Assembly (NCBI RefSeq): GCF_011745625.1
Contig: NW_027191454.1
Coordinates: 496,001-560,000, forward strand
Direction of reading: 5' to 3'
Length of the DNA: 64,000 bases
DNA from: Cladosporium halotolerans
Lineage: Eukaryota
Position 1 is the first letter of the stretch. Each line of letters opens with the position of its first letter. The position numbers were made by a program, and so were the translations under genes. Under the pieces are notes generated by a model. It did no database searches, was not told the DNA's origin, and saw only the letters and a program-made list of their open reading frames with translations. This document shows positions 2,959 to 48,900 of this stretch, in pieces.

Positions 2959-3717
2959 GGCGTTTGATTTGGTTGGTCGATCCAGCAAACATTTGGTCAG
3001 GAGTGATAGGAGAACGCTACTTCACTCCGCTTATATCACGTTTAGTACATGTTGATTCAATCATCATCCTCTGTAAGCATAGAGAGCAAAATTGCCATGG
3101 TTGGGATTTTTGAGACAAAGCCTCAGTGACTGCCTTTGTTACCTAGGTAGTCAACACGCTGCGGCATCGCAAACAAAACAGTGGCTTGCTTTGTATGATA
3201 CGACACTCGCGTGTCGGCAGATCACATCGTAAACATGAAGATGCTCTGAACTCTTTTGGCGTGCTTCCCAAGGAGCTGTCCCAGGAGTCCTGGGCATCGT
3301 GTACGACTTTTTGATACCTCCGCCAGGGCACCTGTATGCCGACCGCCTCTTTCGTTCTGCTGATCCTCTCGGACCCCCGATTGTATCGCAGAGCGCTGAA
3401 GCGGTGGCAATACGCGCGATGCGGTACTGGGAGACGTCACAATGTGACTGCAACATGCTGACAAAGTGACTGCTGGGCAGTGAATGCTCGAGGCCGTCTC
3501 ATTGAATGGCATTGAAGCTAACGAAACCACCTGCTTTGCGTTCACCATCTACTTCTTCACTATGTGCATTGAACGGCGCCTTTCCTCCATCGTATAGACA
3601 CCACCTCTTCGCACGCACCGAACTGTCAGAAGTTCAAACACCGAAAAACATCCAAGAAGACTCTCCGGCAGTTCAACCAACCTCCTAAACATTCTCCGAA
3701 GATCTTTGTTATCAATC

Positions 3718-4404
3718 ATGCCGGCAAACGAGTCGCGTCAGACAACACCGAAGGTCACCACTTCCGATGGCTTCCCACTCATGGAGCTTCCATACGATGT
3801 GAGGCATAACATCATCGAGCACATGATCGACGAGCAGACGATCCGACCATTCATGATACCTTACGCGACTCCCATCGGCCTCCCTAATGCAGCTCGTGCC
3901 GGCGACCGCCTCCTTAGGCGCGAATGCATTCTTATCACGTTGAAGCTAACGACACTGGAGGTGCAAACTGGAGCCAGAAATCTGATCCTTCAAAGGTGGC
4001 TAGCGAGCATCTCCTTCGAAGGTGTGGAGACCTCCTACAAGACCGCCTTCGATGCGATCCGCTCGTTGAAGTTCACGCGCTTCTCGCTCTTCCCAATCGC
4101 GCAGGTGACGTACGATGACATTGTGCTGTGCCAAAAGAGCAAGCACCTGCGCAAGTTAACGATCAACTTCCACCCCGACGCGCTGATCGTCTCTCACCTT
4201 GGTCCGGTCCTGAACTATGCCCCTGCATTCAGGCAGGATTCTCACCTGGCCGGGCTATTAGAGCTCTCGAATCTTGAAGAGCTGCGGATCGAGACGTCGG
4301 GTCCGGAGGCGCGGATGAGGGAGATCCGTGAACTGGCCGCATGGTTCGAAGAGGAGTTCGAAAAGCGGGCTCGGAAAGTGAGTGTGACCGTCCACAGGCC
4401 ATGA
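3718..4404 (+). CDS. Hypothetical protein with N-terminal F-box-like motif; paralog of the next gene
   Basis: 228-codon ORF from ATG 3718. Motif FPLMELPYDVRHNIIEH; extensive colinear similarity to 4962-5885. Confidence 0.75.
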   Translation: MPANESRQTTPKVTTSDGFPLMELPYDVRHNIIEHMIDEQTIRPFMIPYATPIGLPNAARAGDRLLRRECILITLKLTTLEVQTGARNLILQRWLASISFEGVETSYKTAFDAIRSLKFTRFSLFPIAQVTYDDIVLCQKSKHLRKLTINFHPDALIVSHLGPVLNYAPAFRQDSHLAGLLELSNLEELRIETSGPEARMREIRELAAWFEEEFEKRARKVSVTVHRP

Positions 4405-4961: not shown

Positions 4962-5885
4962 ATGCCGCTGTCCTTCGCACAGATCTGTGCAAGAGCCAAT
5001 GGCGCAGAGGTGAGTATTGAATATCGAGGATGTCAAGACCGATGCTAACTTCTCAAATCCTAGATCGTCGAGTTCGATGGCCTCACAATGACCAAGGAAC
5101 TGGCCCTTGTCGTGAGATCAGCATCCGGAACCTACGCGGTGCACCACCAACAACTGCAGGCGACCGAACTCTTTCTTTCCGACATGCCAAATAAGGACTC
5201 TTTGCATAGAACCTCCGAGGGCCTCCGCCGCATTTCGCAATCTGGTCTGCCGCTGATGGAGTTGCCCTACGACGTGAGGCACACAATCCTCGAGCACTTG
5301 GTGGACAGCCAGACGATCCGGGCCTTCCTTAAGTGGTCCGAAATTGCTCTTCGTCTTCCAGTACTGGCTCGCGCAGGCAACCGTCTCCTGAGGCGCGAGT
5401 GCATCCTCGTTGCCCTGAAATCTTCAACCATCGAGATTCACAGCGGTCCAGGGAATGACGCCCTACAGTCGTGGCTGAAAAAGATTTCCTTCGAGGGAGT
5501 GGAAACTTTCTGCAAGAATGGGTACGACGCGGTCTGCTCGCTGAAGTTTCCATACTTTTCCCGCTTCCCCCATGACCGGCCAGGGATCACCATCAACCAC
5601 GACGTCTTGCTGAGCCAGGAATGCAAGCATGTGCGGAAGATTTCAATTGACTTCCACTACAATGAGTTGGGCGGTTACGGATGCCGTGATCCATTTATCA
5701 AGGATGCAGCCACCTTGCGCACGAACTACCAGCTGGATGGCTTGTTGGAATGCTCGCATCTCGAAAAGCTGGAGATTCAGACGTCCGTTGAGGGCGCGAA
5801 GAGGAGCGGCATAGATGAGCTGATTGTCTGGTTCACCGATGAGTTCCAGAAGCGTGGCCAGAAGACCGTTGTTAGCCTTGCTTGA
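4962..5885 (+). CDS. Hypothetical protein with F-box-like motif; paralog of the previous gene
   Basis: ATG 4962 (MPLSFAQICARANGAE). Intron 5010-5063 (GTGAGT...GCTAAC...TAG) joins in frame to the 5088-5885 ORF. Motif LPLMELPYDVRHTILEH. Confidence 0.78.
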
Positions 5886-6471: not shown

Positions 6472-6718
6472 GATGCTTAGAATTCCAGGTTATAAATAGT
6501 GCTTTGATACGTTTTTGTATTCGTTATTGTATCCTCGTAGGAATGTTGGTAACAGGTCTCACGCCATGTTGTCGAGACGCGATGTTGTCGCGATTGCCGC
6601 AAGGGGAAGGAAGCCCGAGGCGAGCGGGAGACGGCGATCTCTTGGCCATGAACTTCCGCTTGATGAGCACGCTTCGAGAGGAGTGCCGGGCGAAAGATTA
6701 GCTGCGTCCACAGCCAAA

Positions 6719-8080
6719 ATGATACAACAACGCAGCCTCGCCCTCCTGGGTGCTGCTGAGCGACAGATTGTCCGTCAGAAATGGCGACAGAACGGACAGT
6801 GCCTGCGCTGCTTCCACGCCTCGAGGCAGCAAATGGCCGAGGAGGGCAATGGAAAGCCGGCCAACGACAACGGAACTCCTTACAACGCACCGAAGCGTGG
6901 ACCCAATCGACAGGAGCGCGCCGCGAAGGTGTCTTCTGAGGTCTCTGCCATTGCGGCCGACCTGCCTAAGGCCAACCTCAAGGGACGCAATGCCGAGGTG
7001 GAAGGAGCTCAATCGAGAGGCACTGGCGTCACCCCTCAAGCGAAGGGCAAATATGTTGGACCTGGACGGATGGGAGAGAATGACAGCGTGCGCAAGGAGG
7101 GTCCTTTCGCGCAGCCCGTCGGCAGGGTGACCAGGGAGTCTGATGAAGACCCCACCACATCGAAAGAGGCGCGCGGCGTGAGGACGCCAGACAGCAAGCT
7201 GGAGGACCCAGAGCAGGGCGGCGCAAGTGTCATGGAGCCTCTTGGAGCGGTTCCTGAAGCCGCGAGTGCCAGCAAGCCTACTGCCGGCACAGAAGAAGCA
7301 GTGGCTACAAACGCCTCTCCTGTCGAAAACGCAAAGCCAGTGGCCCCAGCGGAGAACGTTGCCCCCTCGAAAGGGTCCCCAACCGCTGAGGAGTACCTAA
7401 ACTCCGGCCTGGGTAGCTCCACGCTCCTGGCCTCCAACTTCGCCGGGATGGTAGCAGACCGCGCCAGCCTTGTCGCCCCAAGAAGCTCTCCATCGGCCCC
7501 TGCCCCGGCCGAGGTCGTGCGCCGCCTCAGACACCAAGGCGGCCATCTTCTCGCCTTCCATTCCCATGCAGAAGAAAAAGCATATCGGAGCCCTCGTGAA
7601 AAGCTGATCGCGGAAAGAGACGCGCTGCAACAGGAGATCGAGAGGACGAAAAGGGAACGAGGCTTAGGCTGGAAGAGCCTACCAACGGAGCTGAGGTCAA
7701 AGTACCACGGCGTCAGAGAGCAAATCCAAGCAATGCCCAAATTCACCCCTATGCCGATAAGGTCTCGAAAAGCGATCGTCAACCGTATGGTGTCTGGTCA
7801 GTACGACGAGCAAATCTTGTTCAAGCCTGGCACGCCCGCGCACGAGCAGCCGGTGGCCAAGACTGTTACCAAGGAATTGCTGAAGAATCCCACCTATCTC
7901 AACAAAGACATGGAGAAGCTGCGGACGAAGCTCAGGAGTCTGCTCCCAGCTCCTGTCGCTAAGCCTGCGGCTAAGAAGCCTGCAGTCAAGAAGCCTGAGG
8001 CCAAGAAACCCGAGGTCAAGAAGTCTGAGGCCAAGAAACCTGCGGCCAAGAGGCCGGCTAAGGAAGCAAAGGCAAACTGA
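6719..8080 (+). CDS. Uncharacterised, probably mitochondrial protein with Lys/Pro/Ala-rich repeat tail
   Basis: Long intronless ORF with first good-context ATG at 6719 (CAAAATG). Arg-rich, acid-poor N-terminus ending CLRCFHASR (presequence-like). C-terminal KKPxxK repeats. Confidence 0.7.
   Translation: MIQQRSLALLGAAERQIVRQKWRQNGQCLRCFHASRQQMAEEGNGKPANDNGTPYNAPKRGPNRQERAAKVSSEVSAIAADLPKANLKGRNAEVEGAQSRGTGVTPQAKGKYVGPGRMGENDSVRKEGPFAQPVGRVTRESDEDPTTSKEARGVRTPDSKLEDPEQGGASVMEPLGAVPEAASASKPTAGTEEAVATNASPVENAKPVAPAENVAPSKGSPTAEEYLNSGLGSSTLLASNFAGMVADRASLVAPRSSPSAPAPAEVVRRLRHQGGHLLAFHSHAEEKAYRSPREKLIAERDALQQEIERTKRERGLGWKSLPTELRSKYHGVREQIQAMPKFTPMPIRSRKAIVNRMVSGQYDEQILFKPGTPAHEQPVAKTVTKELLKNPTYLNKDMEKLRTKLRSLLPAPVAKPAAKKPAVKKPEAKKPEVKKSEAKKPAAKRPAKEAKAN
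7961..8060 (+). repeat. Coding 15-bp minisatellite (about 6-7 units) encoding KKP(A/E)(A/V) repeats
   Basis: aagaagcctgcagtc / aagaagcctgaggcc / aagaaacccgaggtc / aagaagtctgaggcc / aagaaacctgcggcc. Confidence 0.85.
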
Positions 8081-21781: not shown

Positions 21782-22689
21782 ATGTCACTCACTTTCAAGA
21801 TTGCCTCGCTTGCAATCCGTACTCTCGCAAAACCGATTGGCGTACGTACGCCAAGCCATCACTTCAATGTTTCACACCTCATTGACACGTCTTGATGTAG
21901 AATTATATCAAGAGGCAGGCCAAAGAGCATGAAGGGTTCAGGCGCTTTGCTGTTGCTCAGGCGCAGCGTGTTCACAGGATAGACATGCGCATGCGCCTGG
22001 GCATGCTGCACGACAGCGCTGCTCAGGAGCGCATGGCCGAGCGTGAACGTAAAATGGCGGAAGAGAAGAAACGACAAGCGGAAACTCCAACGGTGATGAC
22101 GGAGCTACAGCAGAAGAAGCATGATGAGGAGCAAGCACGCAAGAAGACCGAGGGCGGGGCAAAGAAAGAAGAGAAGCAACATGTACCAAGAATCCGACCG
22201 CTCAGCGAGGCGAAAGCTATAGAGCTCGGTGCCAACTTCTTTTCGGAGTCATTCATATTCGCGGTCGCTGTAGGCTTGCTTGTCTGGGACAGCTGGCGCA
22301 GCAGGAGCAAGGCGAAAGACCAAAGAGAAGTGTTGGAAGATCGGTTGGACATCGTAGAGGCGGAAGTTGAAAGACTACGGAACAAGTATGAGCCAGGCTG
22401 GGATCCGCTGTCGGAGAAAGATGAAGAGCCTGCGAAATTTGCATGGTATAATCCGGCGGGATGGTGGATGCGAACAGAACCCAACCAGGACTCAGCGATC
22501 GACGTGGTTAAGGCGAGCCAGTCGGCGCAGGGCACTACAGCGCCGCTCAGCGGTGCGAAGGCTGCTGACGATGCGAAAGCTGTTGTGGGAGAGAAAGCAG
22601 CGCCAAAAGACGAGAAAGCCACTAAGCAGGCATCCGGCGTGCCTCCAGTCCGGATAGATACGGTGTCGGCGGCGAACAAATCGCGGTAA
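21782..22689 (+). CDS. OPA3-like mitochondrial protein
   Basis: Exon 1 MSLTFKIASLAIRTLAKPIG; intron 21842-21900; then NYIKRQAKEH...; OPA3 motif IRPLSEAKAIELGANFFSESFIFAV. Confidence 0.9.
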
Positions 22690-22891
22690 AGCGGGTGAGA
22701 TTTCCACCGCAATGTGTGTATGTACATATGAGATACCCCCCACTTCTGTATTAAGAAAGGCTCTTCAGCCAGATTTCTGTAACTCGCGCGCGCAGCCTTA
22801 CTGAATCTCTAACTCGACCTCACTTCTTGGCGAAAGCAACATAACAAGCGTCAAGTGGGAAATTGCAGCGACATCCAAAGGTATCGTCATT

Positions 22892-23801
22892 ATGTTTTGC
22901 ACGGCTCTCAGAAGACGCCGATCTTATGCTTCGGTGCTGCCATCCTTGATCTCGACTGATGGCTTGAAGCTACGAGGTATGCACGTTCATCTAGAAATGG
23001 GAAAAGCATTGCTCAAGCTCGCACATAGAAAGCAACTTGGGGACCCGTGACCTCGCCATCCCTCCTCCAACTCCTCCGGGCTCTATCAACGGCGCGGACA
23101 GCAAAACCGAACTTCGACTGCTCCTGCTCGCACCCAGCTCAGTGTCCGATGCCAACCTGTCGTGCACCTTAGAACGAATCCACCATTTTGCCGCTTTGAC
23201 AGGTGGGCAAGACCTCGCGATTGTCTTTCTACTCAACCCTCCAATAGCCTCAACCTTCGTGACAGTCAAGGATCTTACTGCCAATGATAGCAATCGGGCT
23301 ACCGATACAAATGGCGTGATCGCATACGCCAGACTACAGGCTGCTCTGCTTCCACGTCAAGATATCCCACCTGTTCCAATCCTGCCGCTCGCCGCATTGG
23401 AAGGCCTGCCACAGCTCCTCAAAAAGCACGTGAACACGATTTCGAGAAAGGTACAGCCTCTGGCTCCTGCCACAGCGCCATTCGAGTTGCTGCAGCTTTG
23501 CACTACCGAGCCGCCAATGGATAGGCAGACAGCTTATTTCGTGACAGACTTCAAAAGTAGTCTGCGCGAGCTTGCCACGGCATGCGCATCATCTTTGGAC
23601 TTGGATGGATCTCGCTCGGATCATTCTTTGCTTGAAACATCGCAGAAGAGTGACCTCAACCGGGACGGTCACGAAAAACTCCAGGGAATCGGCTACGACG
23701 CTTCCGCAATGAATGATCTCAGAGATCTGCTTGATCTTGTTGGCGATGACAGATGCAGGGAGATCGTGGATTTCTGGAGTACGGAATGGGTCGCGGAATG
23801 A
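22892..23801 (+). CDS. Hypothetical protein; predicted inactive ERCC4-like domain plus (HhH)2-like C-terminus (ERCC1/FAAP24/Spo16-like)
   Basis: Intron 22977-23028 (GTATGC...TAG) joins the ATG 22892 exon in frame to the 23037-23801 ORF. Family assignment is by eye (see findings). Confidence 0.6.
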
Positions 23802-23878: not shown

Positions 23879-23920
23879 TACTTAGTGTACACGCATGGCT
23901 ACTTAGTGTACACGCATGGC
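23879..23920. repeat. Perfect 2 x 21-bp tandem duplication
   Basis: tacttagtgtacacgcatggc twice, between two convergent stop codons. Confidence 0.95.
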
Positions 23921-23973: not shown

Positions 23974-26943
23974 TCAAGCGTGTTCCCTTCCTCTTTCCAT
24001 ATCACGCAGAACCTGCCCTGCAATCTCAATCGCTCCCTCAGGCAATCCAGCCATGCGTGCGACTTTGAGTGCATGACTCTTCTTATTCACACCCTTCCGA
24101 AGCTTATGCACATATGCCCAGCTTCCATCGTCATCTTCAGAGACATCGGTATGATAGCACCCCAAACCCTCAAACTCTTCAGTCATGCCTGCCAACGCGT
24201 GGAAGTGTGTCGCGAATAGCGAACGGCATTTGTTGACATGCTGGAGATGATGTAGGCAAGCATAGCCGACCGCCACGCCGTCTTCAGGGGTAGTGCCGCG
24301 GCCAACCTCGTCCATGATAACAAAAGAACGCGGGGTGGCTTGCTTGAGAATTTCCGCCGTCTCGAGCATCTCAACCATGAATGTCGACTGGTCTTGGTAC
24401 AGGTTGTCCGCCGAGCCGACGCGAGAGAAAATCTTGTCGACCAAGCCAAGCTCAGCATACTCCGCGGGAACGAAACAGCCTGTTTGCGCTAAGATGGTGA
24501 TTAAAGCATTCTGTCGCAGATAGGTGCTTTTTCCCGCCATATTTGGACCAGTGATGAGATATATCATCTCGTTGCTGTCGCCGACTAAGCAATCATTGGG
24601 CGTAAAATGGCGGCCTTGGTCCATGAGACCTACATCGACCGTTGGATGGCGACCGCCGACAATTTTATGCGAGGTGCTTGAGTTGAGAACCGGACGTGTC
24701 AGACTGCGTTCCTTTGCCACTATAGCACTGGAGCAGGCAACGTCAAGCTCGTCAAGGACTGCAGCGTTTCTCCTCAATTTCATGAGGTTCTCAAGGACTT
24801 GACCGCGCAATTTGTTGAATACACGTTCTTCCTCAGAGCGGATTCTCAATTTAGCATCGTCGATGCTGACGCCAAGGTGTGTCCATTCAGTGATGTGAAA
24901 CGTGCGGGTCGACTTCGTCGAGCCTATACTGCGTGCTCCTGGAAGGGCAGCAATCTTGCCATTCGTGTCTTTGCCTTTGACGTGGCAGAAGTGGCCCAAC
25001 TGTGCGCTCCATTTGAGTGTAAGGCTCTCCAGCCCAGTCTCTTGGCGAAGCTTTTGAGCCAGCTCGTGTTTCTCTAGGAGCAGACCTTGTAGGTCCCTGT
25101 GCGCTTTTGAGAGCGTTTGGGACGCATTGCTTCGCATGATCCAGATATCTTGTTCGCCATTACTTATGGCAGTATCAGCTCCGCCATTGGCCTTTTTTGA
25201 CGCTCTACGAGCCAGCTTCGGTGGCGCTTCGCCGGCCGCATCAGCGTTCATGACTTCTTCCGCCATTGCCTCTGCTTCGGTCGCTTGGTCGACTTCGGCT
25301 TGATGCTTGCGCGAGAGTCCCTCTTCATCGATGGTAGATTGTATGCTGTTCGCAACTTTGACCGGATCTTTCAGCTCAAACCTCCCAAGTAGATTCTCAA
25401 AGCATTGCAAGTCGGTGAGAGGATCAAAATCGGGGCTTGAATCTTGATCGGACGTCAGCTTGCTCGCTTGCACGTGTTCTTGCAAGGCTTCGAAAGTCTG
25501 CTGCATCACTTCAATTGTTTTGGCGAGCCCAAGCATGTCGTCTGCGTCACCTCTGCCGATCGAAAAACGCTGCAGCAATCGAAATGTGTCGAAAGTCTTG
25601 CGAAGTAATCCCTGGACAAGATCTCGAAGAGAATCCTTACAGCGCAGTTCCTGGACTAAGTCAAGTCGATCGTTGATGGTTGCCAGCGATAGCGATGGTG
25701 ATACTAATCGCTGGCTCAGCAACCTCGCGCCGCTTTTGGTGACTGTCTTCCGGATGGTTTGAAGGAGACTGCCCTGTGTCAATCCATCCTTGAGGGTCTG
25801 GCGGATCTCGAGCCCACGCAAGCTTTGTTTATCAATGACCATGTATTCGTCCGGCGATCGCCTGACGGGGGACTGTAACTTGATACTACTCTCGAACAAT
25901 CGACTGCGAACATATTCAAGGATCAAGCTGCCTGCTGCTTTTTCGTACTCGGTGAACGCAGACTGTTCCTCCGTTGACAGCGGCGATTCGAGCAAGTCCG
26001 ACCAGTCAGCTATGGAGACATTGGGAGAGGTGTCCTGAAAGTGTAGCGGCGTCCCCGTGTTCCCGAATAAATTTTTCACCAGCGACGAGGACGCGTCTTG
26101 AAGCGTTACATCCAACACGATCTCTCTAGGGCCAATGCGCGCAATCATAGATGCTAGCGAAGCCACGTCGCTGCTTTGAACGAAGAAATCTCCGCTGGAA
26201 AGGTCGACCCAGCTCAAACCAACCTTGATGTTCCTGGTGTTGTGTTCCAGCGACTGACTTTGTTCAAGCTGACTGGCGATTACTCCTTTGACATGGACGC
26301 TGAGCAAATAATTGTTCTCGAAAGGGTCCACGAAGTTTTCGTCGATCAAGGTGCCAGCTGTGATGACTCTTGTCACTTTTCGATCGTACATCGGGGCACC
26401 TGGCTTCAAAAGGCGTTGACTGTCTGGCAGGCGTATCTGTTCGCTTATGGCAACTTGCTTTCCGAGGTCCTGAACGAACATCTTCAAGTATCTGTCCAGT
26501 TGAGTGTGCTGGAATCCGGCCATGGCGACATCTCCAAGAGCCGTAGCACGCTTGGCCCTTTTGAGATTGACAAGTGGCGCGTATTGCTCGACTTGATCGA
26601 AATACATCTCGTAGAAGTCGCCAACGCGGGTGAGCACGACGCAGTCGCTGAACTTGCGGACATTGTTGAGGTGCTGTTGGAGTACAGGTGGATACTTTTT
26701 CTCCGGTGGCTTGTCTGTCTCGTCCTTCGGTAGAGGTGGTAGTACGCCCTGGGGAAGACTGTCGACTGCGATGGTCGTTTTCCGTTTGGCGCCACGCGTC
26801 AATTTCAAGGAGACATGGGAGTGTAACCCGACATCGTTGTGCACGAACGATGCATTTGCATTACCAGCAATTATTGCTATCCGCGTTTCAATCGATGTTG
26901 GCATGCGACATTTCGCCGGCCGGAGGATTCTATTGGCGATCAT
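23974..26943 (-). CDS. MSH1: Mitochondrial MutS homologue
   Basis: RVGDFYEMYF mismatch-binding motif, AGFQ, ITAGTLIDE, Walker A ITGPNMAGKST, STFMVEM, DEVGRGT and FATHFH. Basic N-terminus. Confidence 0.93.
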   Translation of the reverse strand: MIANRILRPAKCRMPTSIETRIAIIAGNANASFVHNDVGLHSHVSLKLTRGAKRKTTIAVDSLPQGVLPPLPKDETDKPPEKKYPPVLQQHLNNVRKFSDCVVLTRVGDFYEMYFDQVEQYAPLVNLKRAKRATALGDVAMAGFQHTQLDRYLKMFVQDLGKQVAISEQIRLPDSQRLLKPGAPMYDRKVTRVITAGTLIDENFVDPFENNYLLSVHVKGVIASQLEQSQSLEHNTRNIKVGLSWVDLSSGDFFVQSSDVASLASMIARIGPREIVLDVTLQDASSSLVKNLFGNTGTPLHFQDTSPNVSIADWSDLLESPLSTEEQSAFTEYEKAAGSLILEYVRSRLFESSIKLQSPVRRSPDEYMVIDKQSLRGLEIRQTLKDGLTQGSLLQTIRKTVTKSGARLLSQRLVSPSLSLATINDRLDLVQELRCKDSLRDLVQGLLRKTFDTFRLLQRFSIGRGDADDMLGLAKTIEVMQQTFEALQEHVQASKLTSDQDSSPDFDPLTDLQCFENLLGRFELKDPVKVANSIQSTIDEEGLSRKHQAEVDQATEAEAMAEEVMNADAAGEAPPKLARRASKKANGGADTAISNGEQDIWIMRSNASQTLSKAHRDLQGLLLEKHELAQKLRQETGLESLTLKWSAQLGHFCHVKGKDTNGKIAALPGARSIGSTKSTRTFHITEWTHLGVSIDDAKLRIRSEEERVFNKLRGQVLENLMKLRRNAAVLDELDVACSSAIVAKERSLTRPVLNSSTSHKIVGGRHPTVDVGLMDQGRHFTPNDCLVGDSNEMIYLITGPNMAGKSTYLRQNALITILAQTGCFVPAEYAELGLVDKIFSRVGSADNLYQDQSTFMVEMLETAEILKQATPRSFVIMDEVGRGTTPEDGVAVGYACLHHLQHVNKCRSLFATHFHALAGMTEEFEGLGCYHTDVSEDDDGSWAYVHKLRKGVNKKSHALKVARMAGLPEGAIEIAGQVLRDMERGREHA

Positions 26944-27313
26944 GAGGGAGTGGATGTCGCCAATTTGAACGAAAAATTAGGAAATGCAGGAGCTGTCACA
27001 TCGCGTTCTTGAAAAGCCATCCAGAGACTCGAATGCGTACTGAATCAAGCCCCGAAACGCCAGATGAAAAGAATACGATGTTCATGTTCTGGTTGCTATC
27101 AGGAGTCAATCGTTCCAAGCCCAGAGTTCGTTTGATGAGCTGATCAGCCAGACCCTTGCTGCTCGATCGATGGAAACTCTAAATTTCACGCCGCGGCCTC
27201 CACCGCGCTCGTAGGATGCGGGACACTGATGGCTTCTGGTCCCGCATCTGCGCCTTCGTCATTAGCCTCTCTTTTTCATGACCCTCGCCTACAACATCCG
27301 CATCCCTACCGCC

Positions 27314-35746: not shown

Positions 35747-36698
35747 TGACCTTACACGGTTTTGGGGTGACGAGAATGGACACATGATGGGTTTTATGCG
35801 TTGCGGCTTTTGGGAGTTCTTGCTTTCACTGACATGGCTCTGGACCGGACCGAAAGGGTAATGGCGTTTGCGGTGATCGGGTGATACCACTCTAGGCTTG
35901 CTCTGGTCGCTCACTTTGTGGGCCTCGACCGAGTTATTTGCTTACCGCTGTCTGTCTCTGTACCTATAGCTAGCTGTTTGTTTGGAATTGAATGCTTCCT
36001 TCACTGCCTCAAATTGAAATAGCTCCATGGGATTTCCATCCGACGACCGCGTGGCAGCGTCTGCTAGGCTGTCTGGTTGTTCTAGACTCAACGGACAGTC
36101 TCTCTAACCGCGGATCTTCAGCCGGGGATGTTGAAACAAGCCTCCGCGATCGAGGCTTGCCAGCATCCGGTCCAAGTTTCAAATCTGCACCGACCGGGCT
36201 GGATGCAGGGGTGCATCTGGCGAGATTTCGTTCGCTCCCGCGCTACATCCAACAACCCGACTTCACGACTTTATTACACCCACATGTTTGCAGCCATCAC
36301 GGTGGCTTTTCCTGAATCTTCTGCATAACCTGCAGACACGTGCGTTGATGGCGGATGATGACGAGAAAAAGTGTCGTCGTCACTATTGGCATTTGGCCGC
36401 AAGGATTTTCTACCTGAAACACGATGTGCCGCCATGTGGGACGGAGAACTGGAGAGCCTTGCGCCTTTCATTTCCTTCCGACCTGTTCATGCCGTTGAAT
36501 CCGGATCTGACGTAGACCACCGTCTTGACCATAGGTATAAAACTCATGGTCAGTCGTGACCAAAACGGGGCAAGCTACACCATCTTTTCCGTTCGTACTC
36601 TCCCTCTCTTGCCCATCTTTCCAGGACGCAGAGCCAGTCTCTATCCGTTCCACTCATTCGAAGACATTGAAAGCAGGCCTGTCAAATCGAAAATCACG

Positions 36699-37397
36699 AT
36701 GTTTCTCCAAAGCGCTCTCCCTATCCTAGCCGCAGTCGGCACAGCTTTCGCCGCCGCGATCCCCACTCAGACTCCGAACGAGAACCACCTAGCTCGTCGC
36801 GCCGTCTCTGGTCACTCCACGTTCTACGGTGGCAATGTTCAAGGAGGCACTTGTTCCTTCTCAACCTACAAGATCCCATCGGGTCTCTACGGCACCGCTT
36901 TCAGCGGCCAGGCTTGGGACAACGCCGCCAACTGTGGTGGTTGCGTCAAGGTCACGCACGGAGGCAAGAGCATCACCGCAATGATCGTCGACAAGTGCCC
37001 AGAGTGCGACGAAGGTCACCCCGACCTCTTCTCCGACGCCTTTGCTGCCCTCGCCAACCCTTCGGACGGAATCATCGACACCAGCTACGAGTTCATGTCC
37101 TGCCCCAAGGTCTCCGGCCCGCTCACCATCCACACCAAGTCCGGCGTGTCGCCCTACTGGTTTTCTGCCCAGGTGGTCAATGCCAACCGCCGCACTTCGA
37201 AGCTGGAGGTCTCTACCGATGGCAACTCGTGGACCGAAGCGAAGCGAACCGAGTACAACTTCTTCGAAATCTCTAGCGGAGTCGGTGCTGATTCGGCTTC
37301 GATTCGCGTCACGAGTGAAGACGGCGCATCGGTGGTTGTCAAGGATGTTTTGATGAAGGCTGACGTTAGCACTGACGCCTCTGGCAACTACAAGTAA
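36699..37397 (+). CDS. Secreted expansin-like protein (DPBB + CBM63; EXLX1/EglD-like)
   Basis: Signal MFLQSALPILAAVGTAFA. Motifs STFYGG...GGTCSF, ANCGGC, MIVDKCPEC, HPDLF, SPYWFSAQV and RTEYNFF. Confidence 0.9.
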   Translation: MFLQSALPILAAVGTAFAAAIPTQTPNENHLARRAVSGHSTFYGGNVQGGTCSFSTYKIPSGLYGTAFSGQAWDNAANCGGCVKVTHGGKSITAMIVDKCPECDEGHPDLFSDAFAALANPSDGIIDTSYEFMSCPKVSGPLTIHTKSGVSPYWFSAQVVNANRRTSKLEVSTDGNSWTEAKRTEYNFFEISSGVGADSASIRVTSEDGASVVVKDVLMKADVSTDASGNYK

Positions 37398-38614: not shown

Positions 38615-38677
38615 CCTCCCATTCGGAATATTTGGAGGTAGCTGCGGCTGCTTGCCACAACCCACCACAAGGATGTC

Positions 38678-41600
38678 ATGTCTCTCAGCGACGATTTTGG
38701 CGTCGAGGACGACGATACTGAGTTCCTAGCTGCTGCTACCCAAGTTGAAGCATCACAAAATGTTGAATTTGCAGCGTCACCGCGACCAACGAAGCGTCGG
38801 AGAACTGGCGGAGACCAACAGCTGGATGGAGCAAGCTCGGATGCGCCTGATGGTGTGGAAAGCGATGAAGATGACTCTCCTCCTGGAGCGAGATCAGGAC
38901 ATAAGGCTTTTCTAGCAGCGCCATCGAAGATGAACGACAGTGAACAAGAGGAGGATGGAGAGCCGGAGGAGGACCCGAGCTATTACTTTCCAGAAGAGTT
39001 GCGAGAGAACGAAGAACAGGCAGCAAAGCAGTCGAAATACAAGATACACATTCCAAAGAATGGGGGGTTACTACCGGACATGGTCTTGACACAAACACAA
39101 GCAGATCTGGACGAGAACCCTGCTGCAATCCGGGGCGCAGTGTGGAAGAAACCAAAACCACCTCCACCACCGCTGTTCAATGCCACCAGTACTCGAGTTT
39201 CTGCAGCCGGTAACCAAGCTTTATCCTCAGTTGCTCAGCGGCCGCGATTGGGCGGTGGTCTCGATGCATTCGTACAACGCTCTGCGGCCAGCCGGCCCAG
39301 ACCGATAGAAAGTGACGAAGCAATGGCAAAGCGACTGCAGGCCGAAGAGAATACTCGTATCCGCCAATCTTCAGAAGCCCGCCCACGTGTAGGCGATGAT
39401 AATGCGAAGAAAGCTATGGACTTTACACAAGATCTCGAAGACCTGCCATCTGATGCCTTCTCGTCCTCATCCCCCGAAAAGTCGCCGGCTAAAGAGACCA
39501 TTGCACTATCATCCCAACTAGGCAATTCACAAAGAGTAGTCAATGGATTGAGAGGACCGCAAGCAGGACTGAAACAGATGACGATATTTGGACAACCTGC
39601 CACCCAGTCAATGTCAGCCTCTCAAGCCGCCGCAAAGAAGCACGCTTGGCCGTTGAAGGCTCGGGAAGAGGCTGCAACACACCACAAGCTCGACGAGGAG
39701 GCAATGAAAACTTGGGTATACCCAACCAACCTCGGTACAGTCCGTGACTATCAATTCAATATCGTGAGCCGCAGCCTTTTCCATAATACCCTTGTCGCTC
39801 TTCCTACTGGTCTCGGCAAGACTTTCATCGCAGCAACCGTCATGCTGAACTACTACCGCTGGACTACCGACGCGCAGATCATTTTCATGGCCCCGACCAA
39901 ACCTCTTATTGCCCAACAAATGGAGGCATGCTATGGCATTGCAGGTATCCGCAGACAAGACACAGTCCTAATGACGGGCGAGACGACACCAGGAATCCGT
40001 GCGGAAGAGTGGCAAGAAAAACGTGCTTTCTTCATGACACCACAGACTGTCATAAACGATCTGAAAACCGGTATCTGCGACCCGAAAAGGATTGTTTTGG
40101 TGGTGGTTGACGAAGCGCACAAGGCGACAGGCGGATACGCCTACACAGAGGTTGTATCATTTTTGCATCGCTTCAATCCAAGCTTCCGAGTTCTGGCTTT
40201 GACAGCTACACCGGGCTCAAGTGTTGAGGCTGTACAGTCCGTCATTGACCATCTTGGGATAGCTCGCGTTGAAGTTCGCACGGAGCAATCCTTGGACATT
40301 CGTCCGTATACGCATGAGAAGCTCACTGAGACCGAGGTGTTCGACTGGAGCGATGAACAGAATCTCATCATGGACCACGTGTCGAAGGCAATCAAACCCG
40401 TGCTCGATAAGCTCAACTCTCAGAACGCGTACTGGTCCAAGGACCCTATGCTCCTCACAGCCTTTGGGCTCACTCAAGCTCGGAAGAAATGGATGATGTC
40501 CGAGGCTGGGCGCAAGGCGCCTCAGGGTCTGAAGGGCATGGTCAATACGATCTTTACTGTTTTGTCTCAGATTGCACACAGTATCTCTCTGCTCAAGTTT
40601 CACGGAATCAACCCGTTCTACTCGAGCGCTCTTGAGTTTCAGAAGAATGTCGAAAATGGACAAACGAAATCAAAGTATGCTAAGCAGATCACGGAACACG
40701 AAGATTGGGTCAAAGCCATGGGATACATGCGTCGATGGTCCAACAGTCCGGACTTCATTGGCCATCCTAAGCTCGAATATCTGCGCGAGGTGGTTCTCAA
40801 TCACTTCTTGGATGCTGGAGAAGGTCAAGAGGGCCCTGGCGCGCCACCTAGACCAACGCGAATCATGGTGTTCGCCGGATATCGCGACAGTACGCAGGAC
40901 ATCTGCAGAGTCCTTAAGCGCAACGAGCCAATGATCCGGCCGCATGAGTTTGTCGGGCAAGCAAGCTCGAAATCATCTGAGGGCATGAATCAGAAGAGAC
41001 AGAATGCCGTTATCCAAGATTTCAAAGCCGGCAAGTTCAACACCCTTGTTGCCACATCAATTGGCGAGGAAGGTCTGGATATTGGCGATGTCGACCTCAT
41101 CATTTGCTACGATGCCTCGGCATCGCCGGTGCGAATGCTGCAGCGGATTGGTCGCACAGGACGCAAGCGTATCGGCAGGGTCGTGCTTCTCTTGATGCGT
41201 GGCAAAGAGGATAACGACTATGCCAAGGCGCAAGATAACTATGCGTACATTCAGAAAAGTATCGCGGACGACAGCAAATACAGCTATCGCGATGATCAGA
41301 GCCCGCGCATTTTGCCGAAAGAGGTCAAGTCTGTGGTCGACAAACGAATTATCGACATTCCGACCGAGAACACGCAGCCAGTCGATCTAAACGAAAAGAA
41401 TCGTAAGCGAAAAGGCAAGGGTAAGGTCAAGAAGCCCCCCAAGAAGTTTCACATGCCCGACAATGTGCGCACCGGATTTGTCAGCGCACGTCGCATGGAT
41501 TCCGACCAGGAAGAGAGCGAAGGCGAGCCGGCACCGAAGAAGGCATCTGCGGTCAAAAAGAAGCCAGCAGGTAAAACCAAACCGAGGCCTGTCTCGCCGC

Positions 41601-42529
41601 CCCCAGAGCCTGCACAGATTCCATTCATCGACGATGTTCTCCTCACTGATGCTCAAGAGCGCGAACTCGAGCGGAAGTATGCATCTACTAGTGATAGTGC
41701 ACAGAACACCGTTGTTCAGGCTCCCGACCCTTCCAAATTCCCAGGCTCTCTGCGGGAACTCGGCACATACAAGTACGTCCGTCACGGACGGGCAGCCACA
41801 GCTGTCTCTGAAGCCATGCAGATTGTTCGAGGCATTGACGAGGAGCGTGTCAATAGAATGAGGGACCTCTTCAGCGAGAAAGATCTTAGTGACTTGATGG
41901 GAGCCAGAGCAAGACTCGTCAGTCCTGAACCAACGGCAGAGAACCCTGGAATCGAGCGTCCTGAACCTCCCACTACCCGACCAGTGCCAAAAGCAAAGAA
42001 ACCTCGTGGTCGCCCGCCAAAGAAGCAACAAGCATCTAATAGTGCAAACGCCTATGGCTCGGACGCCGTGGAAGGAGACGAATCCAGTCCTGAACCAACA
42101 CCAGCCGAAATGCGACTTCCCACTCAAGGCATCGATCTTGGATCGCACGACACGAGCGGGGAAGAAGAGGAGGAAGAGATGGACAGCGAGCTTGACGCTT
42201 TCGTTGCGAAGAGCGACGACCCAATCGAGACGTTCTCGAGCTCCCTGCCAGATACCCAGAATTGGGGTCTGCCGGCAAAGAAAGCTGGCCGCCTCAAGCC
42301 TCGTGCGAAGCAAGCTCCCATCCAGATGGAGTCAGATGACATAGTTGAAGATGCCTTCAGTGGTGAAGAAGATGACGATGCCACCCCCAAAGGCGGACGA
42401 ATATTCGTTGATCTCGATGAGAAGGTTTCAGAGGAGGATGTTCCACTATTTGAGGTGGAGGATACCGGTGCTGCAGCAGGACGGGCGAAGAAGCGTCGTG
42501 TCGTTCAAGATAGCGACAGCGACGAGTAG
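38678..42529 (+). CDS. MPH1: FANCM/Mph1/Fml1 DEAH helicase
   Basis: TWVYPTN...VRDYQF, LPTGLGKT, DEAH, LTATPG, TSIGEEGLDI and QRIGRTGR. Intronless, 1283 aa. Confidence 0.96.
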   Translation: MSLSDDFGVEDDDTEFLAAATQVEASQNVEFAASPRPTKRRRTGGDQQLDGASSDAPDGVESDEDDSPPGARSGHKAFLAAPSKMNDSEQEEDGEPEEDPSYYFPEELRENEEQAAKQSKYKIHIPKNGGLLPDMVLTQTQADLDENPAAIRGAVWKKPKPPPPPLFNATSTRVSAAGNQALSSVAQRPRLGGGLDAFVQRSAASRPRPIESDEAMAKRLQAEENTRIRQSSEARPRVGDDNAKKAMDFTQDLEDLPSDAFSSSSPEKSPAKETIALSSQLGNSQRVVNGLRGPQAGLKQMTIFGQPATQSMSASQAAAKKHAWPLKAREEAATHHKLDEEAMKTWVYPTNLGTVRDYQFNIVSRSLFHNTLVALPTGLGKTFIAATVMLNYYRWTTDAQIIFMAPTKPLIAQQMEACYGIAGIRRQDTVLMTGETTPGIRAEEWQEKRAFFMTPQTVINDLKTGICDPKRIVLVVVDEAHKATGGYAYTEVVSFLHRFNPSFRVLALTATPGSSVEAVQSVIDHLGIARVEVRTEQSLDIRPYTHEKLTETEVFDWSDEQNLIMDHVSKAIKPVLDKLNSQNAYWSKDPMLLTAFGLTQARKKWMMSEAGRKAPQGLKGMVNTIFTVLSQIAHSISLLKFHGINPFYSSALEFQKNVENGQTKSKYAKQITEHEDWVKAMGYMRRWSNSPDFIGHPKLEYLREVVLNHFLDAGEGQEGPGAPPRPTRIMVFAGYRDSTQDICRVLKRNEPMIRPHEFVGQASSKSSEGMNQKRQNAVIQDFKAGKFNTLVATSIGEEGLDIGDVDLIICYDASASPVRMLQRIGRTGRKRIGRVVLLLMRGKEDNDYAKAQDNYAYIQKSIADDSKYSYRDDQSPRILPKEVKSVVDKRIIDIPTENTQPVDLNEKNRKRKGKGKVKKPPKKFHMPDNVRTGFVSARRMDSDQEESEGEPAPKKASAVKKKPAGKTKPRPVSPPPEPAQIPFIDDVLLTDAQERELERKYASTSDSAQNTVVQAPDPSKFPGSLRELGTYKYVRHGRAATAVSEAMQIVRGIDEERVNRMRDLFSEKDLSDLMGARARLVSPEPTAENPGIERPEPPTTRPVPKAKKPRGRPPKKQQASNSANAYGSDAVEGDESSPEPTPAEMRLPTQGIDLGSHDTSGEEEEEEMDSELDAFVAKSDDPIETFSSSLPDTQNWGLPAKKAGRLKPRAKQAPIQMESDDIVEDAFSGEEDDDATPKGGRIFVDLDEKVSEEDVPLFEVEDTGAAAGRAKKRRVVQDSDSDE

Positions 42530-42917: not shown

Positions 42918-45900
42918 TTACTCCAGATAATCTGGAACAGAACCCCCAATAGCATCGTCTATGCCGTTGAACCAAAGTTCAGGCATGCCCTCAGACCGTT
43001 GCAGGATATCGTTCTCCCCGAGCACCACATCTGCGTCGAAAATACTCTTCCTGGTATCTCTCTTTATGACGCCCGTGGGCTGCGTACCCGGCGGACCGTT
43101 GAAGTAGTTGGTCACGTATGTACGGCAAGTGCTAGTGGAGCTGGGTCTGGCAGACGGTGCCACCGTGCGTGTAATGTAAACGGTCGTAGTCGTTGTCCCA
43201 CCTCCTGAGCCTCCCCCCACCGTCACCGTCACGGGATTTGTTGCGGCGACAGTGACGGTGACAACGTTACCGCCCGGCCCAAAAGTGCCGTTGGGGCCAT
43301 AAGTATTCACGTTTGTCGGGGTCGACGTCACGGTCAGCTCGTCCACGCTGACAGAGATGAGGGTGGTCGTCACCGTCTCGGTGGAAGCGGTTTGAGGAAC
43401 CAACGAAACGCTGACCGCGGTTGTAACGCCGTAAGATGTCACGTAAGAAATACCATTGGACACGTAAGTGCTGACCACGGTCCGAGTCTCGTAGATTGTC
43501 GATGGGACGTACGAAATCGTTGTGGTCGTCGTCGTGACTGTTTGCGTTGGGGCAGGAACGTAGCTGATACTGACGGCGGTGCTCACGCCGTAAGAAGTCA
43601 CAATCGAGACGCCGTTCGAAACGTAAGTGCTGACAACGGTACTGACGCTGTATATTGTTGATGGAACAAGCGTTGTTGTTGTAGTGGTCACGGTCTGGGT
43701 TGGCGCAGGTCCAGTTCCGGGTCCAGTTCCCGGGCCTGTCCCAGGTCCTGTACCTGGAGACGGATTCATGCTACCGACGATGGTAGAGCCGTAGTCGCCT
43801 GGTCCGGTCCCATTGCCGCCGCCACCACCACCTCCTCCGCGTGGACTTAGAAGTCGACAAGCGATCGCCCCAGCTTGCCTCATCAGAGTCAATTCAGCCT
43901 TGAGCAAGCAGTTGTTCTCGGCCATATCGTAGAAGAAATTGACGCCCTGACACTGGGTCCCCAGATAGAAAGTCAAAACATTATACATATCACATGCCGC
44001 GAGACAACTGGTGAGCTGGTCTTGTGTCTGGGTCTGGAGCGTGGGGCCGCCAAAACCCTCGTCGCAGAGTACTTCGTATAACATTCCCTGGGAGGTCATA
44101 TAAATTGCGCCGTTGTTCTCTGGACATTTGGGAGGGGTGGTCAAAATGGGGCCTGGTGCAGTTGTTGTAGTGGTTGTCGTAGCGGTCGTCGTTGCAGTGG
44201 TAACGCCAGTGCCTGGCCCTGTGCCCGGCCCTGTACCCGGTCCGGTACCTGGTCCAGTGCCCGGCCCTGTGCCTGGTCCAGTACCCGGTCCAGTGCCCGG
44301 TCCGGTGCCTGGTCCCGTTCCTGGTCCCGTTCCTGGGCCCGTTCCTGGGCCCGTTCCTGGGCCCGTTCCTGGGCCAGTGCCGGGCCCAGTGCCGGGCCCA
44401 GTGCCAGGTCCAGTTCCGGGGCCGGTTCCAGGGCCATTGCCAGGACCAGTGCCGGGTCCGCTCCCAGGGCCATTACCGGGGCCGTTTCCGGGGCCATTAC
44501 CTCCACCTCCGCCTGGCGTAGTCGCAGCTGGAGTTATGCTCGCTGGAATTTGAGTGAAAACATAAGAGCTCCCATCTTTGCCAGTAGTAGTGACCACAAT
44601 TTGGCCAGGGCGTGAAGTGCCAGAGTACACGAAGAATCCGGAGTTCGGGCATTTCGGCTGCGGATCGCAGCTTGTCAAAGTGTGGGTAGTGAAAACCGTG
44701 GTAGTTCCTGTGCGAGGTGGGCGGGCTGCGCATGTTGGATTGTAGCTGGCTGGAGTCGATGGAAGCAGAGAGGTAGGCGGTCTCGTGGTAATCTCGCATG
44801 GGTTTGTGACAATCACGGGCGTGATGTCGCAGTCAAAGCATAGCGATACGCCTTCGCAGCTTGGTATCGGCGTCACACCCCCAGATGGTGTTGGATAGAC
44901 GTAGGAGGGACCATTGGGGCCGCTGGTGAGGTATCCGCCACTTGTTGGTAGTGTGGTTTCCACTGTACTTGTCACTACCGCGCCTGAATTCGACGAGAAA
45001 ACTGTGATAGTCGATGTAGCAGATAAAGCTTGTGTTGTTAGCATGTGAGATTCTGTGGAATCCTGAAGGTTGTTGGGGCTTACAAATTGTAGTGGTAGGA
45101 GTTATCGTAGTCGTGACAGTCATCGGAGGCGCCGAGGTGCTGTCTGAGTAGCCAGGTGGCGAAACCGCCCCCACAGCAGCTATGATGTTATTGTCGACCG
45201 TCTGAGTGCCGTTATTAGCAGATTTGAATCTGCACACGCTCTGTAAGGTGTCGTATTCGACGCCAACACATAAGTCGTTCATATCGCAAGTAGGTAGGCA
45301 GTTGGCGATATTGTCAGCGCTCAGAGGAGCTATTGGGATGTAGCCGCCTGAATACTGCGTGTAGCAGACAATCTCGTACTGGATCCCCATGCTATCGGTG
45401 AAAGACTTTCCTGCGCTGTCGGGACACGAAGGCAATGTGTCAATCGGAGTCGGGGGAGCCTCGTTCTGCCCGTAAACCACACCGCCCACAACACCGGGTG
45501 CGTAAGAATAGCCAGAGACAGAGCTGAATAGCGTGCAGTCATTTCCGACAAAGTTGAATGCTTTGCAACCTGACGTTATGCTGCAAAGATTCTGGCAAGA
45601 TGCGAAGTCCGGAACGGTGGCTCTGTCAACTAGCATCGAGATCTCTTCCCCATGTTCAGTCTCCACCAAGTCACTTCTACCAAATGCGATATTGATGTCA
45701 GAGGTGTCAATCTCTGTGCCCTCGTACAAGATACCGCATTGCACTGCATAGTTCGTCCCACCAGTGGAACATGTAGTCTGCGGTGGATTGTCTCCCATGC
45801 AGTAATATGATGTACTCGTCGGACAGGGAGGAGCTGGTCCGTACGATATAGTTGAGGAAGGGCCACTGCTGGTACCGCTTGTTTGACTAGAGCTTGACCC

Positions 45901-48900
45901 AGGGCGCGATATTGTACTCATCGTCGAAGAAAGAGCACTGCTTGCGCCACCAGAGGATGTCCCAGAGCGCACCGTCGTACTCATCGTCGAAGCATTGATG
46001 CTGCTTAGTGATCCAGAAGAGCCACTTGTGCCTATCGATGATTGACTGCGAGATGTCTTTATCGGTATCGGTTCGCGAGACGTGACGGAATACCCCAGTG
46101 CTGCGATTTTGAAGCAAGTGGTGATCGTATTGCCCGCTGGATAGAGCGTACCTGGAGATGACTTCAGATAGCAGTCGCCCTCGTTTCCCCCAACGAATGT
46201 GAACCCTTGACACCCTATAGTGGTGTCGCACACGCCGAAACAATAACTTAAACCACCGCGTGGGACTGGCACTGTGAGAAATGAAGCTGTCGAGGAGTCG
46301 GTTGCGCAGTTGATGATGTAGACCTCTCCCAAGGGATCCGTAAACCTCGAGTTGCACGCTGGCTGGCCTTCGTTGGTAGGCGAAGCATTTGCTGATACTG
46401 TCGAAGTCGTGCTGGAGAGTGATAAAGAAGAGCTCGAAGAATGGGTGCTTGGAGAGCTCGGCGAGGACGCAGATGGAGAGGTGCCCGTAGAAGAACCTGC
46501 AGATTGTGCCGAAGACGTTGTTGAAGACTGTGATATGCTGGTGCTGGTAGAGGAGGTGTCTTCGGTAGAACCCGCAGACTGCATTGACTCTGTCGACGAC
46601 ATGCTTGACATGGAGGCTGAAATGGTGGACGACTCGTCGTCAATTTCCATCGTGGTAGTACGAGAATGAGATGCAGCAAAGCTCACTGAGCTTGATGTAG
46701 GTATTTCCGCTGTTGATGTGTCATCATTGGACATGGAAGGCGTCACATATGCAAATGTCTGCGTTTCGCCTTGAGAAGCTGAACTGATGCCACTGCGGCT
46801 TGACGAACTCGACGAACTAGCACCAGAAACGACGAGACTCGACGTGGATCCTTCGTCGGGTAGTAGGATTGCCGTGATCAGATCTTCGCTGCCGGAGATT
46901 GCATTGTGTTGTTCTTTCCTCAAGTAGCATGTTCCTCCTGTGATTGTACCTTGTACCCACGTGATTGTGGTGCACTCGGACTCGGCAGTGCAGAGATCTA
47001 AACATTGCGTGAAGTCGCCTTCTGCGAAATAGGCCACATCAAAAGCGCTAGACCCGTCTGCATCTGAGGAGCAATAAATGCGAAATCTGCGATCATCACG
47101 TGCAGTTAGCACCTGGTTGTTAATGCCAGGGCAAGCCAAAGTTGAGCTTGGTGTCGGAGATTCAAGGACGCTCGTCATCGTCGTCGATTCATCAATACTA
47201 GTGCTGCTCTCGTTTGCGATAGTGGTTGATGGCACATCAGAAGAGGTGGAGCTTGTCGTAGACGACTCCGCTTCCTCATCAGCACTCGAAGTACTAGCAA
47301 TGTCGGTTGGCACAGAGCTCGAGATCGAAGGGGATGCCCCCTTTCTAGCACCGTTTGTTGTGCCGTCATAGACGAACTTTCCATCTTCGTCAGATTTGAT
47401 GTAGCATGTGCCGGCGCCATTGCCGCCAACGAAAGCAACGCCTACGCAGGCACTGTACTGATCGCAAATCTCCAGGCAGTTGGCAAAGCTTCTCGCGCCC
47501 ACTACGCCGTTATTTGGCAGACCAGCAAACCCGCCAGTGAAGTCGGAACCGCAAGCAATCGCGTAACCCTGACCGTTGGAGTCTGTCCAAATCGTATTAT
47601 TTGACGAAGGGCAGATCAGAGGGGTGGGTACCGCAGTGTAGGCTGAAGTTTCGGTAGCTGTAAGCGACGACAAGGGGCCGGTGTACGGAAGGGACGATGC
47701 GCTGTTGGTGGACCGACCCATACCACCGTTGATAGTATTGGTACTGGGCTGGGGCTGGGTTGGTGACAGACTGGTGCTGTACGAGGCGCTCGGTTGCGCA
47801 TTGATGGGCTGCTGGTAGACTCTGATTGAGTTGATCGACCAGTATGCATCCACGAAATCTTGAGGATTGTTTCCAACATAATCGACGCAGGCGGGCCAGC
47901 TTTGGCGGTTAGGCTGTTGAGGACATTCAGGGTATAGGAAGTACACATTGCCAGCCCAGTCACCGCAAAAGTCGGTGTTGATGATGATGCTCATGTTGGT
48001 GAAGAAGTTGTCAATCACACATCCCGGCCCTTGCTGATTGACGGTAGGTTTGCCAAATTGTGATACGTCCGGCGCACCGTTCGTAATGCTCGATGGGATG
48101 GAGTCACGAGGAAAAAACCAGTGCTTCACAAACTCGGACGTCCATTCTGTCGCATACACACCGCCACCGTTCTCATTGAAGTCCGCGCCAAAATTGTTGG
48201 GTATCGTGGACTCTACTAGTTTGGAGCCGCAACCGGAATTCTGATTTACACGAACGTCACAGTTCGTTGTTTGGAGTGTTGCAGTTTGGTCACTTCCAGA
48301 GATATCGCATCCAGGCGCGGTGTGCATCGAAATTCCGTTCTCATTACTGGTGTGAACCCCTTCCATGATATCTAGGGATCCTCAGTTCATTGAAAGGCTT
48401 TACAAAATAGTAGAGAAGAACTCACCGATTTCTCCGTACTTTGGCCATGGCTCCGGTCCATTTCCAAGAAGCCAATATGCAGGCCAGGTACCGCATCCAG
48501 TTGGCATGTGTGAGGCATCAAAGATGAAAAGGCCATGTGTGTACGCATTGTTACTGACCAAACGCACACTTGGGCGACCAGGTCCACCATTGGGCCACCG
48601 ATTGGTGGTGTCTACACTCAATCGGGCAGTACCATTTGGCGTTGTAGCGAAGCCATTGCGCTCGGCGGTGCCTCTGTCCACGTATTTGACGTGTCCGTTG
48701 GTTGGGTCAGGGCCGGTGTAGAATGTGAACTTGTCGAAGAAGATCGAAGCTTGGTAGTCGTCGATCAGGCCGTACGCTCCAGCTCCAGGAGCTCCATTAC
48801 CGCCGTAATAAGTTCCACCGGGATATGCTTGTCCAGAAACACCGGAAAAGAGGGAAATGAAGGTCAGGATACTCGTCCTCGAAACGATTGGCAAGGACCG

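Follow-up and report, generated by a model that had tools for sequence, protein, structure and literature searches.

The meiotic ZZS complex has been conserved between yeast, plants and mammals. Among the classic systems for the study of meiotic crossover and synapsis are Sordaria, Neurospora and related fungi. According to the accessible text of the primary reports, the yeast complex binds branched recombination intermediates and acts in class I crossovers (PMC5859969; PMC6411835), and the same role is described for mouse (PMC6357729) and, as cited there, for Arabidopsis. The Spo16 subunit of Saccharomyces cerevisiae (PDB 6BZF/6BZG), the partner of Zip2, is a small, catalytically dead ERCC1-like protein that evolves quickly and is invisible to profiles. 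Its counterparts are PARTING DANCERS (PTD) in plants and SPO16/C1orf146/SCRE in animals, which partner SHOC1. Several non-catalytic subunits belong to the same fold class: ERCC1/Rad10, EME1/Mms4 and FAAP24, the partner of FANCM, which at about 215 aa also combines an inactive ERCC4 domain with a tandem helix (HhH)2 region.

For fungi, the accessible part of a 2018 study records Zip2 as present but Spo16 as 'Not found' in A. oryzae, N. crassa and C. neoformans (PMC5859969, Table S3); the top ten matches of its Spo16 search were homologues of Mus81, Rad10 and Eme1. The accessible text of work on Sordaria refers to a 'Zip2-Zip4' complex with no mention of Spo16 (PMC11244814), and that of a T. reesei study names sme4, msh5, zip4 and mer3 (PMC11381340). 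In the literature searched, which included the accessible parts of PMC6155065, PMC5962103, PMC12706140 and PMC8763056, no filamentous-fungal Spo16 was found, and subscription papers or supplements may name the gene. Here, we describe a gene of Cladosporium halotolerans that probably encodes the Pezizomycotina Spo16, the inactive ERCC1-like subunit of the ZZS complex.

The gene lies on the forward strand of the window, the 64,000-nucleotide stretch of DNA that was analysed, and encodes 285 aa in two exons. Exon 1 (22892..22976; residues 1-29) begins with an ATG and holds the first strand and helix of the ERCC4 domain, while exon 2 (23029..23801), defined by the gene model and by homologues, encodes residues 29-285 and the stop codon. 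They are separated by a phase 1 GT..AG intron of 52 nt (22977..23028). In two of the four runs, X1 from study P1 and X20 from study P12, RNA contigs show this intron spliced out, and an intron of the same type occupies the same position in 9/9 related loci compared. Because introns of neighbouring genes are also spliced in the X1 and X20 contigs, these represent RNA. Of the remaining runs, X21 covers part of the gene and the coverage of X8 lies outside it. Thus, a spliced transcript exists, in RNA whose conditions are undefined and in contigs that carry no levels. One X1 contig spans three genes and so does not define a single transcript, and read-through from the upstream OPA3 gene is possible.

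The initial annotation began the coding sequence at 22841. Nine coding fragments that it quoted from the spliced frame were checked and all found, in the order given; its start has to be moved to the ATG at 22892. Upstream of this codon the frame runs back to a stop at 22802 and contains no ATG, and annotated homologues begin MFCTxLRRR, matching the M-F-C read from 22892 onwards. The segment KGIVI is therefore 5′ untranslated sequence, and the 'IV' that had been taken as the first ERCC4 strand is not protein; in the model of a full-length ortholog the first strand falls at residues 2-3.

Comparison of the X1 contig with the window gave 12 listed coding differences in the gene (22918-23258), 8 of which change a residue, against 4/9 in OPA3 and 0/6 in the polo kinase gene; the counts rest on 40 of 241 difference rows and hint at fast evolution of the gene. 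X1 also carries an 8-base duplication at the gene's stop codon that leaves the protein unaltered. Single-base deletions were seen at 23186, within a T run and in the X20 contig only, and at 20943 in the polo kinase open reading frame, in both X20 and X21. At both positions X1 has the window's sequence, and the two deletions are probably artefacts of the X20 and X21 runs.

With exon 2 as query, 99 homologues were retrieved at E<=1e-3, the nearest named ones from Cladosporium at about 50% identity, and a profile search expanded the family to 409 representatives at 50% identity; the best 150 were inspected. The open frame is thus more than a chance occurrence and, together with the spliced RNA, this confirms that the gene is real. 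Thirty members were looked up; 19 carried a species name, and 19/19 of these are Pezizomycotina. We take the named members to fall in Dothideomycetes, Lecanoromycetes, Leotiomycetes, Sordariomycetes, Xylonomycetes and others, with Daldinia, Hypoxylon, Thozetella and Colletotrichum presumably representing the Sordariomycetes. Neurospora, Sordaria and Eurotiomycetes do not appear among the members named from the best 150 of 409, an absence that may be due to this cut-off. Since the family is widespread in Pezizomycotina, the gene says little about sex in this organism, and the earlier suggestion that it hints at a retained sexual cycle carries little information.

Apart from fused models labelled OPA3-like, family members are annotated as 'hypothetical' throughout. 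The upstream neighbour in the window is OPA3 (PF07047; exon 2 at 21901..22689, forward strand), and this synteny is long conserved, being found in three classes. OPA3 adjoins the gene in 12/19 metagenome loci, 11 times upstream in tandem and once downstream, and the remaining 7/19 loci include less than 500 bases upstream of the gene. Three long family matches, the NCBI/UniRef models P0122, P0237 and P0251 (Lecanosticta, Colletotrichum and Erysiphe), join OPA3 and the gene under an OPA3-like label. They probably represent merged neighbours in which the gene is masked, and we did not retain them as a sign of a functional link with OPA3. In loci with 45-52% identity for the family protein, the values are 55-76% for OPA3, 70% for the downstream MutS-family gene and at least 78% for the polo kinase. 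By this comparison the family protein evolves faster than its neighbours.

The downstream convergent neighbour (23974..26976, reverse strand) encodes MutS domains I, II, III and V, which we read as an MSH1-like protein. A 21-base tandem duplication lies at 23879-23920, between the convergent 3′ ends, and one copy is missing in X1. Elsewhere in the window, Pfam matches identified an expansin-like protein (36516-37397, forward), a PAN-domain protein of 1182 aa (44833-48381, reverse) and a 1729-aa open frame with long flanks around a mid-frame PhoD-like phosphatase domain (53211-58400, reverse). Four open frames gave no Pfam match: 3598-4404 (268 aa), 5064-5885 (273 aa) and 6500-8080 (526 aa) on the forward strand, and 42918-45101 (727 aa) on the reverse strand.

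The fold of the protein was examined by structure prediction. An AlphaFold model of exon 2, from which the first 29 residues are missing, reached a pLDDT of 82.7. To make up for this gap, the compact ortholog P0187 (Hypocenomyce, 39% identical) was folded over its full length (pLDDT 91.9). Structure comparison of the exon-2 model by VIA returned FAAP24, ERCC1, FANCM and Zip2 in the top six rows (Z 8.1-6.8; best FAAP24, Z 8.1, rmsd 8.3, 159 aligned), with ERCC4 matches over residues 1-140 and HhH domains over 146-256; Foldseek with this model alone found nothing at E<=1e-3. The P0187 model gave 9 Foldseek matches at E<=1e-3, 9/9 of them XPF-family and led by FAAP24 (4m6w_B, E 3.8e-5). In VIA, the top 14 rows for P0187 were all XPF/MUS81-family (Z 12.7 to 7.7). 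Its ERCC4 part (residues 1-147) matched FANCM (Z 12.7, rmsd 3.0, 126 aligned), ERCC1 (12.0) and FAAP24 (11.2), and its HhH part (residues 148-223) matched the HhH2 domains of XPF and Hef at Z 7.9 and 7.7, the best unrelated row reaching 7.3. In a further structure search the XPF family filled the first 34 rows.

Structure prediction and the three structure searches agree on the fold, and they confirm, at the level of models, the architecture first proposed from the letters: an ERCC4 domain that has lost its catalytic residues, followed by a C-terminal (HhH)2. The dead ERCC4/XPF-like domain (22892..23450; about residues 1-169) is placed by the VIA matches. The accessible text of PMC6411835 defines the catalytic motif of active XPF/Mus81 nucleases as GDxnERKx3D. 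The lack of an ERKxxxD motif noted earlier holds for the whole sample (0/258 family proteins), and the remnant of the longer motif is its first Asp, kept in 82/87 aligned rows with a residue there. The predicted five-helix (HhH)2-like dimerization domain (23466..23786) is delimited by the models and by HhH matches to XPF, Hef, UvrC and DisA, and five C-terminal helices appear in both models. Its hairpins are degenerate, the first without Gly and the second with Gly in 90/126, and it ends in a conserved FWxxEW motif whose F, W and E are nearly invariant in the family. Between helices 3 and 4 lies an insertion (23607..23693) that is modelled with low confidence (pLDDT about 50 over exon-2 residues 191-220), is poorly conserved, forms a gap in the alignment and is absent from the compact orthologues of 220-230 aa.

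Sequence and profile methods returned far less. Pfam ERCC4, HhH, SCRE, PND and Rad10 were matched by 0/118 members at E<=0.1, and neither exon 2 nor four compact members (E<=10) matched a relevant Pfam family. PDB profile searches with family profiles A1 and A5 returned 0 XPF-family entries. Among the 118 members there was likewise no sequence or profile link to Spo16, PTD or SCRE. In the ESM Atlas, where all scores were below 0.9 and serve as leads only, the nearest named clusters were one bearing SCRE in 14% of its members (0.86) and two of PARTING DANCERS (0.84 and 0.83), with FAAP24 (0.82) and EME1 (0.79) lower.

Compared with the described Spo16 proteins, the family is similar in its small size, dead ERCC1-like fold, fast evolution and invisibility to profiles, and the partner and role proposed below are those of S. 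cerevisiae Spo16, to which no sequence similarity was detected. The HhH region differs. According to the accessible text, the yeast protein has a single HhH (PMC6411835) and mouse SPO16 is a protein of 186 aa with a three-helix HhH (PMC6357729), whereas the protein here has 285 aa and five helices. In this respect the family resembles FAAP24, ERCC1 and the PTD clusters (scores of 0.83-0.86 including the animal cluster), whose proteins are of similar length (243-250 aa) and carry an HhH_5 domain in 28-89% of members. A reduced HhH is therefore not universal in the Spo16/PTD/SPO16 group. The animal SPO16/SCRE profile, PF15162, was matched by 0/118 family members.

The models do not tell which XPF-family subunit this is, as FANCM, FAAP24, ERCC1 and MUS81 score within about 1 Z of one another. 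The Zip2:Spo16 entries reach Z 9.5-9.7, their best chain being Zip2, in a table that gives one row per entry. Elsewhere in the genome, Rad1, with an intact catalytic motif, and Rad10 (G000:C24; PF03834, E 2.6e-49) are present as separate genes. Spo22/Zip4 was found. The genome also holds six MutS paralogues, and by comparison with the PDB two of them are not close to MSH2/3/6; by elimination these two are probably Msh4 and Msh5. Spo22/Zip4 and the two MutS paralogues occupy L004/L005 (G000:C132), L014 (C580) and L015 (C24). With a candidate Zip2 described below, these genes co-occur with the new gene in one genome, which appears to have kept the ZMM toolkit.

PF23394 (DUF7102) was followed as what we took to be a lead to Zip2. 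The genome contains a two-exon gene (L007:2207-5390, equivalent to G000:C671:548706-551889, reverse strand) encoding a large protein with DUF7102 and SAM_6 (PF23395) domains at its C-terminus, the only orphan XPF-like protein that was found. It has 187 relatives, all unnamed among the 120 listed, and ERKxxxD occurs in 0/121 of the family. The N-terminus is long and weakly conserved; the first Asp of the motif is kept in 65/67 and a near-terminal Trp in 64/67. These two residues may correspond to D538 and W704 of yeast Zip2, as described in the accessible text of PMC6411835. The nearest Atlas clusters are EME1-type (0.87-0.89), no Zip2 structure came up when the DUF7102 alignment was used as a profile against the PDB, and hhalign of the new family against the DUF7102 family gave a probability of 9.7%. 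The DUF7102 domain is 51-57% identical to its Cladosporium relatives, a pace of change about that of the new family. On these sequence features the DUF7102+SAM_6 protein is the probable Zip2/SHOC1 of filamentous ascomycetes.

This protein was the sole XPF-type partner put through complex prediction, in which its residues 462-730 were folded with exon 2 without alignments. The complex scored 0.78, 0.79 and 0.78 in three runs (best of three controls, 0.29), with contacts agreeing to at least 78% and a partner pLDDT of at least 69. The mark applied is reached by 51/78 solved and 2/108 mismatched pairs in a microbial benchmark, and by 71/105 solved and 2/126 unrelated pairs in a eukaryotic one. 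The predicted interface has the XPF-ERCC1 layout, in that both domains touch, and it includes the conserved C-terminal residues F, W and E. Nine of the 15 most conserved positions fall inside it, and the conservation of interface residues relative to the rest was not significant (p=0.19 and 0.16). The accessible text of PMC11377751 reports that AlphaFold pairs human C1ORF146 with XPF, MUS81 and FAAP24 besides SHOC1. XPF-type pairs pass by their likeness to solved complexes, and therefore a score of 0.78 does not pick the partner. The two proteins are thus predicted to pair, in a complex whose pass may be memory of solved structures.

Several other readings of the gene have to be weighed. The most novel of them, which we consider unlikely, is that its action is not restricted to meiosis: the protein would be an ancestral-type ERCC1-like subunit with a full (HhH)2 that senses branched DNA in vegetative cells of filamentous fungi, in the manner of FAAP24. 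If so, it would act together with the DUF7102 protein or move onto Rad1 or Mus81 instead, and moulds would have a non-cutting repair module of the XPF type that is missing from yeasts.

A reading that we consider improbable accepts the DUF7102 partner and makes the pair, instead of the ZZS module, an inactive XPF-like dimer peculiar to Pezizomycotina, whose role would be non-meiotic or additionally mitotic. The complex passes at 0.78 under this reading as well, the transcript comes from RNA of undefined condition, the identification of DUF7102 as Zip2 is a probable one, and DUF7102 is mentioned in none of the papers in the literature searched. Against it, Zip2 is reported in Aspergillus, Neurospora and Sordaria, Zip4 is present in this genome, and the DUF7102 protein, as its only orphan XPF-like protein found, fits the described features of Zip2.

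We give equally little credence to a fungal FAAP24-like factor, a vegetative sensor of DNA structure acting in crosslink or fork repair with a partner other than Mph1. FAAP24 was the top Foldseek match of the P0187 model and the top VIA match of the window protein, it is of the same size with a tandem HhH, and spliced RNA of the gene occurs in two studies. However, the ranking could not have favoured human SPO16 or PTD, which did not appear among the solved structures, and the accessible text on mouse SPO16 gives FAAP24 and archaeal XPF as its top HHpred matches (PMC6357729), so that structure matches led by FAAP24 are also expected of a Spo16. FAAP24 further has a PND domain and docks on the ERCC4-(HhH)2 of FANCM; PND (PF17949) was matched by 0/118 members, and the Mph1/FANCM-type helicase of the window (38642..42529, forward strand) consists of helicase domains only. 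On its 3′ side only 389 bases separate it from the next open reading frame, which is on the opposite strand. Since Mph1 lacks the C-terminal ERCC4 domain, as had been noted at the outset, the known docking site for FAAP24 is gone. It is this absence that counts; the distance of 15 kb between the two genes, offered earlier as evidence, carries no weight.

It is just as doubtful that the protein is a second non-catalytic subunit of an active nuclease, either Eme1/Mms4-like with Mus81 or ERCC1-like with Rad1. Structures of ERCC1 and MUS81-EME score on a par with the others, and XPF-family subunits can intermix in prediction, according to the accessible text of PMC11377751. Five insensitive genome searches did not find Mus81 or Eme1, neither of which was located by PF21292, PF21136 or two motif patterns; the elimination is to that extent incomplete. 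The insensitivity is evident from the ERCC4 profile search, which returned Rad1 alone, and it applies equally to searches with SCRE and PND, which gave no candidates and do not prove absence. One weak PF21292 match, L009, was rejected as a Mus81/Eme1-type gene. Against this reading stand the true Rad10 elsewhere in the genome and the ascomycete EME1-type proteins, which form a separate Atlas cluster (score 0.79) with PF21292/PF02732, profiles matched by no family member (0/118). That the gene is itself the genome's Rad10 is refuted by the separate gene at G000:C24 and by an hhalign probability of 0.1% between the family and that Rad10.

Spo16 is thus the likeliest identity, the same best reading as in the initial annotation, and its basis is elimination together with a complex prediction that does not discriminate. 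It is preferred because Rad1 and Rad10 are separate genes, Mph1 lacks ERCC4, and Zip4 and a candidate Zip2 are present; the partner, the orthology and the meiotic role are what we infer from this. According to the proposed model, the gene product would serve filamentous ascomycetes as the Spo16/PTD/SPO16-type subunit of their meiotic ZZS complex. Through ERCC4-ERCC4 and HhH-HhH packing it would pair 1:1 with the C-terminal DUF7102+SAM_6 domain in the G000:C671 protein, giving a heterodimer like XPF-ERCC1 in which the conserved FWxxEW motif at its end docks against the partner. The dimer would bind branched recombination intermediates without cutting them, Zip2 would recruit Zip4, and the complex would direct intermediates towards class I crossovers and the initiation of synapsis.

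Because the ZZS complex is conserved in the lineages named at the outset, such a result would be expected in kind, and the candidate Spo16 fills a gap rather than overturning a view. If the identification is correct, two unannotated families would gain an annotation, and the PF23394+PF23395 pair may become annotatable as Zip2. With a candidate Spo16 family, OPA3 as its locator and a DUF7102+SAM_6 partner family, the full ZZS module becomes testable in filamentous ascomycetes.
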